Part shown: one piece after another, positions 3,210 to 12,646 of the stretch | Layout: every line of letters begins with the position of its first letter | Numbering within the stretch: the stretch's first letter is position 1 | DNA from: Shigella virus Moo19 | Strand: one strand, 5' to 3' | Sequence record: MZ358387 | DNA length: 64,000 nucleotides | Translations under genes and position numbers: made by a program | The notes under the pieces: generated by a model | Databases searched by the model: none | Seen by the model: only the letters and a program-made list of their open reading frames with translations | What the model was told of the DNA's origin: nothing

Positions 3210-3276
3210 AAACCGCATCTAGAAACTGGGCTGTTCCACAGCTTACGGATACATTTCAACCAATTAGGAGGCATCC

Positions 3277-3492
3277 ATGAACGTAGAAAATATCCGTATA
3301 ATTGAGAATTGCTTTGGTGATAAACCAGTAGACCTCAGCAACGCAAGAAGGTCTACAGATGAAGAATACAGAGAGTTTTTATCCTTACTCGATGAATATC
3401 ATATGCAAGGGCATGTTGAATTACATGCCCATCTGCATAACTCAGGCTACTTCATGGATAAACTGGAAGCTGAGACAGGCTGTCCATTCTAA
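3277..3492 (+). CDS. Hypothetical protein (71 aa)
   Basis: ORF track; strong RBS aggagg upstream. Confidence 0.45.
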   Translation: MNVENIRIIENCFGDKPVDLSNARRSTDEEYREFLSLLDEYHMQGHVELHAHLHNSGYFMDKLEAETGCPF

Positions 3493-3583: not shown

Positions 3584-3600
3584 AAGACGCTCCGCGTCTT
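3584..3600 (+). promoter_or_regulatory. Tri-loop hairpin aagacgc-TCC-gcgtctt (7-bp stem); candidate vRNAP early promoter hairpin
   Basis: Perfect inverted repeat; GC-TCC-GC core shared with 2596 and 7442. Confidence 0.35.
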
Positions 3601-3705
3601 AAGGATGTATGAGTGCATCCAATCCTGTATGAAATCTTAGTCCTTTGTTTGGGTATGTTCACCGACGAGCGTACCCATAAATCACATTTATCTGGAGAGT
3701 ATAAA

Positions 3706-4089
3706 ATGTCTATTAAAACTTTTGGTCAAACTTTCGGTTCTGCTGTTGCTAACAAACCTGCTGCAACTGAACGTCCTAAAGCTAAATTCTGGCTGAACGT
3801 TGGCTATACAGCTAACGAAGGCACAGAAGAAGCTAAGTTCATCTCACTGCCTACTGGTATTCCACTGGATACTCAGGAGCATGTAAGCACTAAGTCCAGC
3901 AATGCTGACTTCCGTGCTATGCGTTGTGCTCAGAACGACCTGCTTGACCAGCTTCTGGCATTTGCAGAAGGTCTGGAACCAGGTGAAGAAGGTGTCATTC
4001 AACTTCAGGTTCAACTTCGTCGAGTCAAAGAAGAAGAAGCTGACATCCCAGCAGACGAGAATAAATATGCTCGTAAGCTGACTTTCTAA
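3706..4089 (+). CDS. Hypothetical early protein (127 aa)
   Basis: ORF track frame 3613-4089; ATG 3706 with ggagag RBS; followed by strong terminator. Confidence 0.5.
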
Positions 4090-4422: not shown

Positions 4423-4575
4423 ATGAAGCTACTGGCAGAGATTCTATGTATTTTATTAATGATACTGCTGGTAGCTGCATTTCCGTGGCTATTAGCCGTA
4501 GGCGTAATTATTGGCATGTTCGCAGCCGGAGTGAATGATGCTCGTGGCAGAGATGAACCAGGTGGAGACGTATAA
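4423..4575 (+). CDS. Small membrane protein (50 aa, MKLLAEILCILLMILLVAAFPWLLAVGVIIGMF...)
   Basis: ORF track frame 4345-4575; ATG 4423 with aagga RBS; hydrophobic. Confidence 0.4.
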   Translation: MKLLAEILCILLMILLVAAFPWLLAVGVIIGMFAAGVNDARGRDEPGGDV

Positions 4576-6787: not shown

Positions 6788-7167
6788 AAGAAATATTCGT
6801 ATTCGGTTCTAATCTGGCTGGTGTACACGGTGCTGGTGCAGCTAAGACTGCATATAAGAAGCACGGTGCTCGTTGGGGTATGGGCGTAGGCCATTATGGT
6901 TGCAGCTATGCAATTCCAACTAAAGACCAGAACATCAAAACAATGGAGTTGGTTGATATCGCTGTATTTGTATCTGCCTTCATCCTGTATGCAGCAGCAC
7001 ACCCAGAGTGGGACTTCAAAGTAACACGAGTAGGTTGTGGGCTGGCTGGCCTGTCTGATAAAGACATGGCATTCATGTTCTTACCTGCAACAGGTAATGT
7101 CATGTTTGATGAAGCATGGAAACCTTATTTAGGTGATACCTATAACTACTGGGGTACATTCGAATGA
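6784..7167 (+). CDS. Gly-rich Rossmann-like motif protein (FVFGSNLAGVHGAGAAKTA...GCGLAGL); possible nucleotide-binding (SLOG/macro-like?)
   Basis: Motif only; family assignment uncertain. Confidence 0.35.
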   Translation: MKEIFVFGSNLAGVHGAGAAKTAYKKHGARWGMGVGHYGCSYAIPTKDQNIKTMELVDIAVFVSAFILYAAAHPEWDFKVTRVGCGLAGLSDKDMAFMFLPATGNVMFDEAWKPYLGDTYNYWGTFE

Positions 7168-7436
7168 CCTATGAAGAATTATGGGCTGCTCAAGTAAGAA
7201 GTAAGGCGAGAGCCTTTGCTCATGTCTACAGCACATTGCAGCATCTTATTAAAAGCAGAACCAAAGCTGGACATATACATGGTTACTACAAAGAAGATTG
7301 TATTCCCGATGGTGACTACCTATGGGATAAAAGAATCCGTCACGAGAGTGACATTATAAAAGTGAATATTGCTATTCATTCATACCCACCAAGGGGTAAT
7401 CGCTACCTATCTATTCACTTTTATACAAAGCGTTAG
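7164..7436 (+). CDS. Hypothetical protein (90 aa)
   Basis: ORF track. Confidence 0.4.
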   Translation: MTYEELWAAQVRSKARAFAHVYSTLQHLIKSRTKAGHIHGYYKEDCIPDGDYLWDKRIRHESDIIKVNIAIHSYPPRGNRYLSIHFYTKR

Positions 7437-7441
7437 GTAAT

Positions 7442-7460
7442 AGCTGCTCCGCAGCTTTTG
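7442..7460 (+). promoter_or_regulatory. Tri-loop hairpin agctgc-TCC-gcagct followed by TTTT; candidate vRNAP promoter hairpin or short terminator, 30 nt upstream of RNAP II genes
   Basis: Perfect 6-bp stem, TCC loop; same GC-TCC-GC core as 2596 and 3584. Confidence 0.35.
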
Positions 7461-7488
7461 GTCATTAATCATATTTAGGAGATATGCG

Positions 7489-8307
7489 ATGTACTCATCT
7501 ATTGAACATCAGAAGCAACTGGAAACTCTGTTTAACAAGAATCAACTAATTCCTCGTATGAGGAAAGAGTTCGAGGACTCCGAAGAAATCCAATTCACTA
7601 AGTATTTTGAGCATATTGGCATCGACCCCAAACTGGGTATTGATGCAATGGTGCAAATTGCTCTGCATAAACGTGCTGACATTCCTACTATGGTTGGCTC
7701 ACTCATGAGTCACAGTCAGGATGCTCAGTACATAGCAGACACTCTGCTTAAGATGGCAGAGCACGACTGCTTTGACTTCGACCCAAGTATCGATAAGTTC
7801 ATCGTCATCTATGAAATCAGTGATGATGTACAACTGGAACTGGAAGCATTCCAGTATCCACTGCCTATCGTCAGTGAACCGAGAGAGGTTAAAGATAACC
7901 GTGGCTCAGGTTACTGGAATACCAAAGGCAGTATCATCCTCAAGAAGAACCACCATGAAATGGATGTGTGTCTCGACCACATTAACCGTATGAACAATCA
8001 ACGACTCAGCATCAACTGGGACGTTGCCAAGTTCGTCAAAAACTCATGGGCTAACCTGGATAAACCTAAAGAAGGGGAATCCCGTCAGGACTTTCAGAAG
8101 CGTGTACGTGCATTCGAGAAATACGACCGTACAGCAAAAGACGTTATGGAACTGGTGACTAAAGAAGGTAACAACTTCTCACTTGACCATAAGTATGACA
8201 AGCGTGGACGCACCTACTCACAGGGCTACCACATTAACTATCAAGGTACTAGCTGGAATAAAGCTGTTATCGAGTTCGCTGATAAGGAGTTGGTAAACGA
8301 TGAGTAG
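7489..8307 (+). CDS. Phage RNA polymerase II small subunit (N4 gp15-like)
   Basis: 272 aa; lies upstream of a T7-like RNAP C-terminal-half homolog; N4-like organisation; strong RBS aggag. Confidence 0.55.
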   Translation: MYSSIEHQKQLETLFNKNQLIPRMRKEFEDSEEIQFTKYFEHIGIDPKLGIDAMVQIALHKRADIPTMVGSLMSHSQDAQYIADTLLKMAEHDCFDFDPSIDKFIVIYEISDDVQLELEAFQYPLPIVSEPREVKDNRGSGYWNTKGSIILKKNHHEMDVCLDHINRMNNQRLSINWDVAKFVKNSWANLDKPKEGESRQDFQKRVRAFEKYDRTAKDVMELVTKEGNNFSLDHKYDKRGRTYSQGYHINYQGTSWNKAVIEFADKELVNDE

Positions 8308-8587
8308 GAAAGAATTTAAAGCTATTGCTCAAACCAGTGGTGGTATGGGCACATTAGCACTAGGAGAAGACGGTACAGTACTGTACACGGCTTACGACGT
8401 ATTATCTGGCAAAACAGTAACAGTATGTCTGTTCTTTGATGTAAATACTTACATGTCACTGGAGAATGCTTTCTCAGATTTCAGCAATGTTATGCGTAAT
8501 CGTGACCAGAAAGCTGACTTAACTCCGGCTGACAAAGACTTCCAGGCAATCCTCAATGACCTGAAGAAACCAGGCAAACTTCATTAA
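8300..8587 (+). CDS. Hypothetical protein between the two RNAP II subunit genes
   Basis: ORF track. Confidence 0.4.
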   Translation: MSRKEFKAIAQTSGGMGTLALGEDGTVLYTAYDVLSGKTVTVCLFFDVNTYMSLENAFSDFSNVMRNRDQKADLTPADKDFQAILNDLKKPGKLH

Positions 8588-8636
8588 TTAACCCATATGC
8601 GTGTTCCATACAGGAACCAGATGCAGGAGTAATAAA

Positions 8637-9854
8637 ATGCAAACTTTTACCGCTAAACAGTACCTGGCTATCGATATCGCTAACAACTTTGGTCTGGATA
8701 AGAAGACCTGGGATGAGCGTTTGGCCTGGTTCGATGAGAACAAAGACAACCTCATGAACCAGTTAGAAGCAGCAGAGGAACCTGCTCTGTATTATGCAGG
8801 CGTTAAAGCCTATGAAGACATGCTGGCTGGTAAGCCTATTGGTTATACCATTGCACTGGATGCTACTGCATCTGGTCTGCAATTACTGGCATGTCTGACT
8901 GGTGACCGTAAGGCTGCTCAGTTGTGTAACGTAGTGAACTACTATGGTAGCGAAGGCAAGGCTCGTCGTAGCGATGCCTACACCGTTATCTACCGTACCA
9001 TGCTGGAAGCCGTAGGTCAGTCTTCTCGTGTTAAACGTGATGACTGTAAGCAGGCTGTAATGACTGCATTCTATGGCTCAGAAGCTAAGCCTAAAGAAGT
9101 GTTCGGTGAAGGTATTCTGTTGAAGACCTTTGAACACGTAATGGGTATCGAAGCACCTGGCCCGTGGGAACTGAACAAGTTCTATCTGCAATGTGGTAAC
9201 CCGGATGCAACCTCATATTTATGGGTTCTGCCGGATAACTTCCATTGTCAGATTAAGGTAATGGTTGACGAAGTACAGACCATTAACTTTATGAACAAGC
9301 CATATGACATCATTCGCAAAGTACAGGGTACTGAAGAGAAGACTCGTATGCTCTCTGCTAATACCACTCACTCAATTGATGGAATGGTAGTGCGTGAGAT
9401 GCTGCGTCGTTGTAACTATGATGCTGACCTGATTACCTATGTAAAACAGCTTTGCTATGGCGTACAGGAATCAAATGTATTCCTGCCAGAAAACGCTGAA
9501 ATGGTGCATGAGTTATGGAACCACTATGAACGTAGTGGTTTCCTGTCCATGCGTATCTGCGATTATCTGGATGCAGGCTCCATCGCTCTGGTTGACCGTC
9601 AGGTCATCCTTGAGATGCTGGAGACTCTGCCTAAGAAGCCATTCAAAGTACTGACTGTACATGACTGCTTCCGTTGCCATCCTAATTATGGCAATGACCT
9701 GCGTCGTCAATACAATCAGATTCTGTCTGACATTGCTAAATCCAACCTGCTGTCATTCATTCTGTCTCAGGTACTGGGACAAGAGTTCACTGCTGGTAAG
9801 CTGGACAATGACATGTGGAAAGATGTCTTAGACGCTGAGTACGCATTAAGCTAA
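8637..9854 (+). CDS. Phage RNA polymerase II large subunit, T7-like single-subunit RNAP catalytic half (N4 gp16-like)
   Basis: Motifs DATASGLQ (motif A-like), KQAVMTAFYGS (motif B-like), TVHDCF (motif C-like); ATG 8637 with aggag RBS (track ORF starts 8601). Confidence 0.75.
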   Translation: MQTFTAKQYLAIDIANNFGLDKKTWDERLAWFDENKDNLMNQLEAAEEPALYYAGVKAYEDMLAGKPIGYTIALDATASGLQLLACLTGDRKAAQLCNVVNYYGSEGKARRSDAYTVIYRTMLEAVGQSSRVKRDDCKQAVMTAFYGSEAKPKEVFGEGILLKTFEHVMGIEAPGPWELNKFYLQCGNPDATSYLWVLPDNFHCQIKVMVDEVQTINFMNKPYDIIRKVQGTEEKTRMLSANTTHSIDGMVVREMLRRCNYDADLITYVKQLCYGVQESNVFLPENAEMVHELWNHYERSGFLSMRICDYLDAGSIALVDRQVILEMLETLPKKPFKVLTVHDCFRCHPNYGNDLRRQYNQILSDIAKSNLLSFILSQVLGQEFTAGKLDNDMWKDVLDAEYALS

Positions 9855-9857
9855 TAT

Positions 9858-9895
9858 GAGCCTCATACCTTCGGGTATGGGGCTTATTTTTTTCG
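9858..9895 (+). terminator. Rho-independent terminator (catacc-ttcg-ggtatg extended, then ttattttttt)
   Basis: Read directly. Confidence 0.6.
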
Positions 9896-9911
9896 AATTG
9901 AGGACACAACT

Positions 9912-10733
9912 ATGCCTGAGTTAAAAGTTGCTTTTAACAAAGACACCTATGTAGCTACCGTACTGGATGCCAGTGGTAGCGTTCCGAGTGGTTCTGTGAA
10001 CGTAGGTACTTTCTTCCATCCTGATGAGACTTACCCTGATAGTTATGTTATCTATCATGGTGTTCGTGAACTCCTGTATAAGCGTTCTGAAGTTGACCCG
10101 GCACAACCAGGCTTCTGGCCTGAGAACATTACCAACATGCAAGCTGTTACCATCGATAACAAGGCTACTGCACGTCTGGTACTGAATACCTCCCTACCTC
10201 GTGTAGTATCTACCATCGAAGGTGGTAAGGTTACTCTGTCTGTTGTTGCTCTGGGTGGTAAGGCTCCTCTTAAATACAAGTGGGAGTTCCGTGCACCTAA
10301 TGCTTCAACCTGGACTGCTGTATCTGGGCAGACTACTGCTAATCTGGTTCTGGATAATATCGATGCTGATAAAGCAGGTGAGTATAAAGTCACCGTTACC
10401 GATGCTGCCGGAACCAGTGTAGATAGTACTGCTCTGGTAGCTGTGGGTGCTTATCCACCACCAGCACTGACGGGCATTAAGGCTACGCCTACTTCCCTGT
10501 CTCTGTCTGTAGCTACTGACGCTGCTGGTAAAACTGTAGCTCTGTCTGCTATCCCGACTGATGCTGAACTGGGTACATTGTCTATTAAGACTGCTCCAGA
10601 TTCTGCTCGTGCTACTGCTACTATTTCTGGTTCTACTCTGACTGTTAAACCAGTGGCTGCTGGTGCTGCAACTTCTGTTGTAGTAACCAACGGTAAAGTT
10701 GATGTGACTATCACTATCAACGTTGCAGCATAA
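9912..10733 (+). CDS. Ig-like domain protein; probable capsid decoration protein (N4 gp17-like)
   Basis: Ig-like sequence features (GEYKVTVTDAAG; Big_2-like C-terminal repeats); position after RNAP II genes. Confidence 0.5.
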   Translation: MPELKVAFNKDTYVATVLDASGSVPSGSVNVGTFFHPDETYPDSYVIYHGVRELLYKRSEVDPAQPGFWPENITNMQAVTIDNKATARLVLNTSLPRVVSTIEGGKVTLSVVALGGKAPLKYKWEFRAPNASTWTAVSGQTTANLVLDNIDADKAGEYKVTVTDAAGTSVDSTALVAVGAYPPPALTGIKATPTSLSLSVATDAAGKTVALSAIPTDAELGTLSIKTAPDSARATATISGSTLTVKPVAAGAATSVVVTNGKVDVTITINVAA

Positions 10734-11417: not shown

Positions 11418-12246
11418 ATTTATTATAGGTTGTTTACTGGCAATAGTTGCAATGGCTAGTCTTACTGGTTGTTATCAACGAGTAGAGCCAGGTAATGTAG
11501 GTATTATCGTTAACCGTTTGGGTGACGATAAGGGCGTTGACCAACAAGTAAAAGGCGTAGGCCGTTACTGGATTGGTTGGAATGAAGACCTGTATACGTT
11601 CCCGACATTCAAACAGATGAAAACCTACGACGATAAGTTTTACTTCCAACTGTCGGACGGTACTCAAATTGGCCATCAACTGGCTATCAGCTATAAGGTC
11701 AACCCGACCAAAGTAGCGACCATCTTCCAGACCTACCGTAAAGGTGTCGATGAAATCACTGACCAGGATTTACGTCAGCGTATTGCCGATATCCTGAACC
11801 GTCAGGGTAACCTGATTAACACTGACAAGTTCATTGACGGTGGTAAGTCACGTTTGCTGGATAGTGTAGCTGATGCAGTTAAAAAAGAGATGGAGCCAGT
11901 CGGTATCGACATTATGGCTATCTCCTGGGTAGGTGCACCGGAATACCCGGACAACGTGAAGCGTGCAATTAACGCGAAAGTTGAAGCTACCCAGAAAACC
12001 CTGCAACGTGAGCAAGAAGTGCAACAGCGTATCGCTGAAGCAAATATGGCTCGTGAGCAAGCCAAAGGTGAAGCTGATGCCGTAGTACTGAAAGCAAAAG
12101 CAGAAGCTGATGCTATTAAGCTGCGTGGTGATGCACTTCGTGAAAACCCTGGTGTAATGGAACTGGAAGCAATCAACAAGTGGAATGGTGTATTACCAAC
12201 CACAATGATTCCAGGTGCAGCCACACCATTTGTGCCTGTTAAATAA
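11410..12246 (+). CDS. SPFH/band-7 (prohibitin/HflC-like) lipoprotein
   Basis: Lipobox LTGC after signal peptide; SPFH-like core and C-terminal coiled-coil; ATG 11410 with ggaag RBS. Confidence 0.65.
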   Translation: MRKFIIGCLLAIVAMASLTGCYQRVEPGNVGIIVNRLGDDKGVDQQVKGVGRYWIGWNEDLYTFPTFKQMKTYDDKFYFQLSDGTQIGHQLAISYKVNPTKVATIFQTYRKGVDEITDQDLRQRIADILNRQGNLINTDKFIDGGKSRLLDSVADAVKKEMEPVGIDIMAISWVGAPEYPDNVKRAINAKVEATQKTLQREQEVQQRIAEANMAREQAKGEADAVVLKAKAEADAIKLRGDALRENPGVMELEAINKWNGVLPTTMIPGAATPFVPVK

Positions 12247-12252
12247 CAATAA

Positions 12253-12282
12253 AACCCCCAGACATTGCTGGGGGTTTTTACG
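12253..12282 (+). terminator. Rho-independent terminator (aaccccca-loop-tgggggtt + T tract)
   Basis: Read directly. Confidence 0.7.
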
Positions 12283-12295
12283 TCTGGAAAGTGTA

Positions 12296-12646
12296 ATGGA
12301 AAAGAACCGCAGGAAGACACTCATTGAGCGTCTGCTTGCCCGTATCAAGATAATGGATATGGGCTATACCGTTAATGGTCAGCCAAGCCTATGCCACATC
12401 TGGACTGGTTCCCACTCTGGGAATGGTCGAGGTGGTCAATATGGCAGGATTTCCGTGAATGGAGTTACCTCTGCTACACATATTGTGGCCTATACCCACT
12501 ATCACGGTTACATCCCTTGCAAAATGCAGGTAGACCATCTCTGTAATAACCGTCTGTGCTGTAACCCGGAACATCTCGAACTGGTGACTCACCAAGAGAA
12601 CCAGAGAAGAAGAGCTGCACGCCAAACTAAAGGTAAAAAGAAATGA
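12296..12646 (+). CDS. HNH homing endonuclease (HNH_3 type)
   Basis: Motifs CHIWTGS...GYI...VDHLCNNRLCCNPEHL...HQEN; ATG 12296 downstream of terminator. Confidence 0.7.
   Translation: MEKNRRKTLIERLLARIKIMDMGYTVNGQPSLCHIWTGSHSGNGRGGQYGRISVNGVTSATHIVAYTHYHGYIPCKMQVDHLCNNRLCCNPEHLELVTHQENQRRRAARQTKGKKK

Follow-up and report, generated by a model that had tools for sequence, protein, structure and literature searches.

A small gene family in the slot between the RNA polymerase II subunit genes of N4-like phages

The RNAPII operon and its putative early promoter

We analysed a 64,000-nt stretch of Shigella virus Moo19 (sequence record MZ358387; hereafter the window) with regard to the region 7442-9887, in which the two genes of a split, T7-like RNA polymerase II (RNAPII) enclose an open reading frame (ORF) of 95 aa, designated ORF-A. 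An earlier note on this DNA, made from the letters alone, had placed a 272-aa ORF, a 95-aa ORF, a catalytic half (8637-9854) and an upstream hairpin in this region, and all four were recovered there in the ORF list and the sequence. The locus is an ordinary two-gene RNAPII operon of an N4-like coliphage, and a split polymerase, a hairpin promoter and spacer genes between the subunit genes are established N4 biology. The locus is therefore of little importance beyond a modest residue, namely a defined, previously unannotated protein family that is tied to the slot between the subunit genes. The operon contains the following features:

7442-7456, + strand: putative P3-type early-promoter hairpin for the virion RNA polymerase (published determinants, N4 match, covariation, enrichment, DNA fold)
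7489-8307, + strand: RNAPII small subunit, 272 aa, orthologue of N4 gp15 (RNAP1) with a DxxGR motif (E 1.2e-126 to PDB 6dt7_A; phrog_2166, 8e-117; 68% identity to N4 gp15)
8283-8288, + strand: AAGGAG Shine-Dalgarno sequence of ORF-A, inside the last small-subunit codons (read from the sequence; 11 nt before ATG 8300)
8300-8587, + strand: ORF-A, 95 aa, uncharacterised early gene in the inter-subunit slot (ratio of nonsynonymous to synonymous substitution rates, dN/dS; slot-bound family; AlphaFold2 (AF2) model)
8588-8636, + strand: conserved 49-nt spacer module with a hairpin and the large-subunit Shine-Dalgarno sequence (seen before the large-subunit ATG in N4, KP8, Jgk1, G7C-like and other loci)
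8637-9854, + strand: RNAPII catalytic subunit, 405 aa, orthologue of N4 gp16 (RNAP2) with motifs A, B and C (E 1.9e-190 to PDB 6dt7_B; Pfam PF00940, 5e-14; T7 RNAP profile match)
9856-9887, + strand: strong intrinsic terminator-like hairpin with a 14-bp stem and the T-run TTTTTT (terminator scan)

The assignment of the outer genes to a split T7-like polymerase with a gp15-type small subunit, proposed in the earlier note, was borne out by the alignment to N4 and by the matches to chains A and B of 6DT7. The catalytic subunit shares 66% identity with N4 gp16, and phrog_2051 was also among the matches of the subunits in the PHROG search. The mechanical ORF list opens the catalytic-subunit frame at GTG 8601, and the alignment with N4 gp16 begins at ATG 8637. 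In the small subunit, the DxxGR motif is represented by DKRGR (residues 237-241) and does not vary among 5 homologues. The large subunit carries motif A as LDATASGLQ (D75), motif B as KQAVMTAFYGS (K138, Y146, G147) and motif C as VHDCF (H342, D343), and these six residues are invariant in 10 of 10 diverse homologues. A profile of ten diverse large subunits matched residues 457-584 of T7 RNAP at E 3e-6. As the match begins at residue 457, the gene split maps to approximately T7 residue 450. The subunits differ by only a few residues in length from those of N4 RNAPII (gp15 plus gp16; PDB 6DT7, 6DT8 and 6DTA), with which they share the DxxGR motif as well as motifs A, B and C. The small subunit of the window is 3 residues longer than that of N4, which accommodates the overlapping start of ORF-A. 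Judged by these sequence comparisons, orthology to N4 gp15 and gp16 is clear for 7489-8307 and 8637-9854, which would encode a heterodimeric T7-like RNAPII.

The hairpin promoter, the spacer hairpin before the large-subunit ATG and the cofactors gp1 and gp2 are likewise common to N4 and the window. Homologues of gp1 and gp2 are encoded at 2652-2966 (71% identity) and 3613-4086 (70% identity), respectively, and most other N4 early genes also have counterparts in the window, in N4 order. By orthology to N4, an active heterodimer on single-stranded DNA, aided by gp2 and gp1, would be predicted. The nearest sequenced phage is Escherichia phage Jgk1, with ~83% nucleotide identity over 78% of a 24-kb stretch. 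The window belongs to a new N4-like coliphage (Schitoviridae, Enquatrovirinae-type) that stands as a lineage of its own next to the G7C-like Gamaleyavirus group.

The hairpin at 7442-7456, AGCTGC-TCC-GCAGCT, has a perfect 6-bp stem and a 3-nt loop and lies 32 nt before ATG 7489. It contains the heptamer GCTCCGC and reads AGCTGC-GGA-GCAGCT on the template (-) strand. Promoters of the N4 virion RNA polymerase (vRNAP) possess a GC-rich heptamer centred at -11 within inverted repeats, with a 3-nt loop; the enzyme recognises the template -11 purine, -10G, -8G and +1C, and four template As act as a ruler (PMC4496689). With the loop centre C7449 set to -11, the template strand of the window carries -12A, -11G, -10G, -9C, -8G, AAAA from -4 to -1 and +1C at 7460, so that each of these determinants, checked one by one, is found in 7448-7460. 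Core and spacing are identical to those of the N4 P2 oligonucleotide printed in PMC13492108, whose reverse complement forms the N4 hairpin at N4 position 564. A second N4 hairpin (AAGCTGC-TCC-GCAGCTT), which lies at 4553 shortly before gp15, includes the window stem. The window hairpin and N4 promoters P1-P3 have in common the 6-bp stem, the 3-nt loop, the template GGA loop, -9C, -8G, the A4 ruler, +1C and the site upstream of the RNAPII genes, and differ in the variable stem bases alone.

The pattern GCTCCGC-N7-GG occurs three times in the 64 kb compared with an expectation of 0.15, and all three copies lie on the + strand and precede the homologues of gp1, gp2 and gp15. The template-strand fold of the hairpin has an energy of -5.7 kcal/mol (z -2.9). 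Such a hairpin precedes the small-subunit gene in every Enquatrovirinae-type locus examined; among relatives the heptamer does not vary, and changes in the outer stem bases are compensatory (AGCTGC, AGGTGC, AAGCAGC, GGTGC). In the GenBank record of KP8, the equivalent site carries the depositor annotation 'early promoter'. We infer that 7442-7456 serves the RNAPII operon as its P3-type early promoter, a specific, known meaning that had been missed when the hairpin was first noted. Supercoil-driven extrusion of the hairpin and initiation by the vRNAP are predicted for this site.

The other two copies of the heptamer are also part of hairpins with GG at +11/+12. CATGC-TCC-GCATG (2596-2608) is located just upstream of the gp1 homologue and AAGACGC-TCC-GCGTCTT (3584-3600) just upstream of the gp2 homologue; by sequence and position they qualify as the P1- and P2-type early promoters of the window phage. 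A fourth TCC-loop hairpin, GCTGT-TCC-ACAGC at 3230-3242, has GG at +11/+12 and the non-consensus heptamer GTTCCAC. A 71-aa ORF (3277-3492), situated between the gp1 and gp2 homologues, starts 35 nt past this hairpin, which is a candidate extra early promoter. For N4, a 2026 paper mentions promoters P1-P4.

ORF-A and the slot between the subunit genes

The earlier note had reported an extra gene between the subunit genes and had described N4 gp15 and gp16 as adjacent. Both statements held: in N4, the two genes are separated by a 47-nt gap without an ORF, whereas the window has the 95-aa gene there. ORF-A begins before the small-subunit gene has ended: its ATG falls in the final codons of the 272-aa ORF, giving an 8-nt overlap with the small-subunit stop. 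In comparison with Jgk1, the dN/dS of ORF-A was 0.19 in frame; the two off-frame controls gave 1.9 and 2.7, and the corresponding values for the polymerase subunits were 0.07 and 0.14. The low in-frame value and a confident AF2 model based on 20 homologues indicate that ORF-A is coding. We conclude that ORF-A is a genuine gene under purifying selection.

No Pfam, NCBIfam or functional PHROG assignment was found for ORF-A. The sole PHROG match of the family is phrog_23664 (function not assigned), which was hit by 4 of 20 members, the window protein not among them. A word-index search of 5.8 billion proteins yielded 34 ORF-A clusters, the informative contigs of which measure ~70-75 kb. An exhaustive HMMER profile search returned ~25 short representatives (73-104 aa), in addition to spurious multi-repeat matches (RCC1, cadherin-like repeats) to a Gly-rich beta-hairpin. 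The gene was present in 10 of 57 surveyed loci. Among isolates, a single-sequence tblastn search detected ORF-A in 15 phage records (1 Escherichia, 10 Klebsiella and 4 Erwinia), a count that is a lower bound, compared with 466 records that contain a small-subunit homologue. Thus, ORF-A is far from universal among relatives; according to the earlier note, universal presence would have spoken against its reading.

The family was always located between the subunit genes, in 17 of 17 independent loci where it was found, and a search with the family hidden Markov model (HMM) revealed no copy outside the slot in any fetched locus. Genomic contexts were read for the window, Jgk1, the KP8-like phages, Erwinia phages Kuerle and phiEaP8, contigs L007 and L008, and individually for five further distant members. 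In each of them, ORF-A is situated between a small subunit of 271-279 aa and a PF00940 large subunit of 404-408 aa. The overlap of the ORF-A start with the small-subunit stop holds wherever the small-subunit gene directly precedes ORF-A. In contig L060, a 167-aa ORF is interposed, and here the ORF-A start overlaps the stop of that ORF. KP8 gp023 and proteins of Erwinia phages Kuerle and phiEaP8 (in part phrog_23664) are ORF-A homologues with 20-36% identity, the identical slot and the same overlap, and are annotated as hypothetical only. The phiEaP8 branch differs in lacking the C-terminal PAD-x-x-F segment described below.

Spacer genes as such are not new. Amgarten et al. (2017; PMC5418858) defined an arrangement termed 'G7C-type', in which zero to eight spacer genes separate RNAP1 from RNAP2, and proposed that a single-chain ancestor of the polymerase was split by a homing endonuclease. 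The variability of the slot has therefore been published, and the window, with the ORF 8300-8587 interposed, fits this spaced arrangement. Our survey covered 57 N4-like loci (the window, 51 usable IMG/VR contigs and five GenBank records), in which the subunit genes lie 6 to 3527 nt apart, and only 8 of the 57 entries, two of which represent the same N4 genome, had a slot of 110 nt or less. The slot is permissive in general, and its cargo in relatives includes many orphan ORFs, HNH endonucleases (HNH_3 with AP2, or with NUMOD1) and, next to an HTH protein, a ParA-like ATPase. Like the window, G7C-type phages carry unrelated gene(s) between the subunit genes (PMC5418858); G7C and its relatives possess an HNH endonuclease and/or a 53-aa ORF, whereas the window contains a different, non-endonuclease family. 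The 53-aa ORF of G7C-like phages was considered as an ORF-A homologue and rejected (HMM E 2.4). ORF-A represents a previously unannotated small family that is found only in the inter-subunit slot and is given no separate attention in PMC5418858.

A second slot gene, ORF-B, follows ORF-A in Jgk1 (L059, 2670-2837) and KP8 (L003, 2799-2966). It encodes 55 aa with the pattern MxxKYELW...RFEQPL and shares 45% identity between the two phages; the match of the G7C-like 53-aa ORF to ORF-B was not significant (E 0.08). The window lacks precisely the ORF-B block, and the junction lies at two TAA stop codons, which suggests a clean deletion of ORF-B from the window. In two distant N4-like contigs (L023 and L043), the slots of ~3.2-3.5 kb harbour a block of three genes: besides a 117-122-aa ORF, it encodes a ParA/MinD-like ATPase and an HTH_36 protein, which makes it partition-like cargo within the polymerase operon of a lytic podophage.

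Descent and possible role of ORF-A

In a neighbour-joining tree of the concatenated RNAPII subunits, ORF-A was confined to one clade, composed of the Erwinia-type lineage and the N4, KP8, G7C and Jgk1 lineages, with isolates infecting Escherichia, Klebsiella and Erwinia. Within this clade, the gene is absent from N4, contigs L006 and L027, and the nine G7C-like loci. Pairwise ORF-A identity follows polymerase identity (Spearman 0.77; Mantel r 0.93, p ~2e-4), and ORF-A changes at two to three times the rate of the polymerase, e.g., with 36% versus 71% identity to KP8. The most parsimonious history comprises one gain of ORF-A at the base of the clade, vertical descent with the polymerase genes and at least four losses, including that in N4. 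Because ORF-A occupies the same slot in KP8-like, Erwinia and metagenomic lineages and co-diverges with the polymerase, the adjacency of gp15 and gp16 in N4 is derived, through loss of the gene. The model phage N4 thus represents a reduced rather than the ancestral state of the RNAPII locus.

These observations leave little room for the insertion that the earlier note had considered. A recent insertion, moron or mobile cassette specific to the window phage might be suspected from the absence of ORF-A in N4 and in 68 of 69 Escherichia N4-like records, and from the fact that the slot is a known landing site of homing endonucleases. However, homologues reside at the same position in Klebsiella (KP8-like), Erwinia and metagenomic lineages, their identity tracks that of the polymerase, and ORF-A is devoid of endonuclease motifs and Pfam matches. 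Direct repeats of at least 60 nt were found nowhere in the window, and therefore none flank ORF-A. The recent-insertion explanation is already largely refuted, and we regard it as highly improbable. A homing endonuclease of the HNH, GIY-YIG or LAGLIDADG type was rejected as the identity of ORF-A, which gave no Pfam, NCBIfam or PHROG endonuclease match and did not cluster with the HNH proteins of the slot. The slots of relatives do hold HNH endonucleases, genes of this kind often decay, and ORF-A could in principle be the decayed, non-functional remnant of such an endonuclease or of other former cargo. This explanation conflicts with the evident purifying selection, the conserved length of 86-104 aa, the confidently predicted globular fold and the lack of similarity to slot HNH proteins, and we give it hardly any credence.

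To obtain a structural model, AF2 required the 20-sequence alignment; the single-sequence prediction was unusable, with a predicted local distance difference test (pLDDT) score of 52.6. The alignment-based model reached a mean pLDDT of 81.8 and ~90 for residues 10-60. The predicted core consists of four antiparallel strands (8-14, 17-22, 27-32, 39-45) and a long helix (48-66), followed by a lower-confidence linker, a short modelled helix (81-88) and a basic tail. The best-conserved segment of the family, D73-x-x-P76-A77-D-x-x-F81, falls in the low-pLDDT C-terminal part and is probably flexible. Foldseek retrieved nothing significant from the PDB (best E 0.34), and from BFVD only family members of Erwinia phages. 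The modelled topology of a four-stranded antiparallel sheet followed by a helix would fit a PUR/Whirly-like fold, to which there was a weak, PUR-repeat-like match. The likeness to the PUR-alpha repeat is one of topology alone, with 5-7% identity and no Pfam match, and ORF-A, unlike that repeat, is not basic. The isoelectric points of the family range from 4.5 to 6.7, i.e., from acidic to near neutral. Nucleic-acid binding is therefore disfavoured by charge, and we down-weighted a PUR-like single-strand DNA-binding function for the same reason.

ORF-A might be a dedicated, lineage-specific accessory factor of RNAPII that assists assembly of the two halves or tethers the enzyme to gp2, the single-stranded template or the membrane, and that is produced in a fixed ratio with the small subunit through translational coupling. 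Its exclusive position between the subunit genes in 17 loci, the overlap of its start with the preceding stop (of the small-subunit gene or, in L060, of the interposed 167-aa ORF), the co-divergence with the polymerase, the conserved low-pLDDT PAD-x-x-F segment, which is typical of a docking peptide, and the weak PUR-repeat-like match all point in this direction, as does the dependence of RNAPII on single-strand DNA-binding helpers (PMC4496689). However, ORF-A was lost in N4, in all sampled G7C-like phages, in L006 and in L027 while RNAPII remained intact. It evolves considerably faster than the polymerase, the family is acidic to near neutral, and in L060 the 167-aa ORF separates ORF-A from the small subunit. 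Position by itself is weak evidence, because N4-like genomes are collinear. The repeated losses, including that in N4, whose RNAPII works without ORF-A, argue against a core polymerase role. They weaken the idea of an RNAP accessory factor, raised in the earlier note, to a possible one, and we judge such a dedicated factor to be rather unlikely.

We favour, and commit ourselves to, the interpretation that ORF-A is a dispensable early accessory protein that acts by binding a protein partner and simply rides on the immediate-early, high-level expression of the operon. In this reading, ORF-A is not a core third subunit, and it is not a mobile-element gene either. That the partner lies outside the polymerase is a tentative proposal, which we hold with slightly less than even confidence; that it is RNAPII or one of its cofactors seems unlikely, though worth keeping in mind. 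The family is a cheap candidate for a polymerase cofactor or a host-directed early protein.

Taken as a whole, an early RNAPII operon at 7442-9887 with a vertically inherited accessory ORF-A is in our estimation the probable explanation of the locus. After DNA entry, the injected vRNAP would recognise the extruded template-strand hairpin at 7442-7456 and start transcription at approximately G7460. A single early mRNA would direct synthesis of the gp15-type small subunit, the 95-aa protein and, past the 49-nt hairpin spacer, the gp16-type catalytic subunit. Translation of ORF-A is probably coupled to that of the small subunit, since its start overlaps the small-subunit stop. The transcript would end at 9856-9887, where the terminator-like hairpin, as read from the sequence, closes the operon. 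By orthology to N4, the two halves would then form the heterodimeric T7-like RNAPII that transcribes the middle genes.

Several points weigh against this explanation. The start near G7460 is deduced from published promoter determinants. The neighbour-joining tree is a quick one without support values, and the number of losses is therefore approximate. No informative homologue of ORF-A was found that would fix its function. Finally, position and start/stop overlap are strictly kept down to ~52% polymerase identity, which could mean a functional tie to RNAPII, and for this reason we retain a role as RNAPII cofactor as a minor option. In that case, ORF-A would be a hitherto overlooked third component of the middle-transcription machinery in the N4-like phages of Escherichia, Klebsiella and Erwinia, a small sheet-plus-helix protein produced along with the small subunit that docks by PAD-x-x-F onto RNAPII or the gp1/gp2 cofactors, a proposal we consider unlikely. 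If true, the protein would act there on assembly, on the handling of the template or on when the early-to-middle switch takes place.

The spacer module and further observations in the window

The spacer module follows directly 3' of the stop codon of the last slot ORF, whichever ORF that is. In the window, it comprises the hairpin GTTCC-ATACA-GGAAC at 8603-8617 and the Shine-Dalgarno sequence AGGAG at 8625-8629. Seven compensating stems were found among relatives, namely GTTCC, GAGCC, AGCC, GGTTT, GGGC, AAGCC and GGCTCTCC. RNAalifold predicted no structure from a MAFFT alignment of the spacer, because the hairpins are out of register in that alignment, and the hairpins were assessed by individual folds. 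No Rfam family was detected in 7300-9950. A coupling device in which the hairpin masks the large-subunit Shine-Dalgarno sequence was not supported, as the pairing probability of the latter was not above that of shuffled upstream sequence. This covarying hairpin just before the start codon of the catalytic subunit is seemingly without a published explanation.

Three further regions of the window are noted. A run of ORFs of 62-136 aa on the + strand extends from 264 to 2434, to the left of the P1-type promoter; no hairpin promoter was found for them. N4, whose gp1 starts at 154, has nothing that matches this run. Either the phage has additional genes at its left end, or the window is permuted with respect to the physical end of the genome. 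A 90-aa ORF at 7164-7436, between the gp14 homologue and the P3-type promoter, is without an N4 counterpart, and G7C-like phages have an ORF at this place. Finally, a 143-aa ORF at 12215-12646 shares 90% identity with N4 gp22, which is annotated as 'endonuclease', and contains the HNH-like segment HLCNNRLCCNPEHLELVTHQEN.

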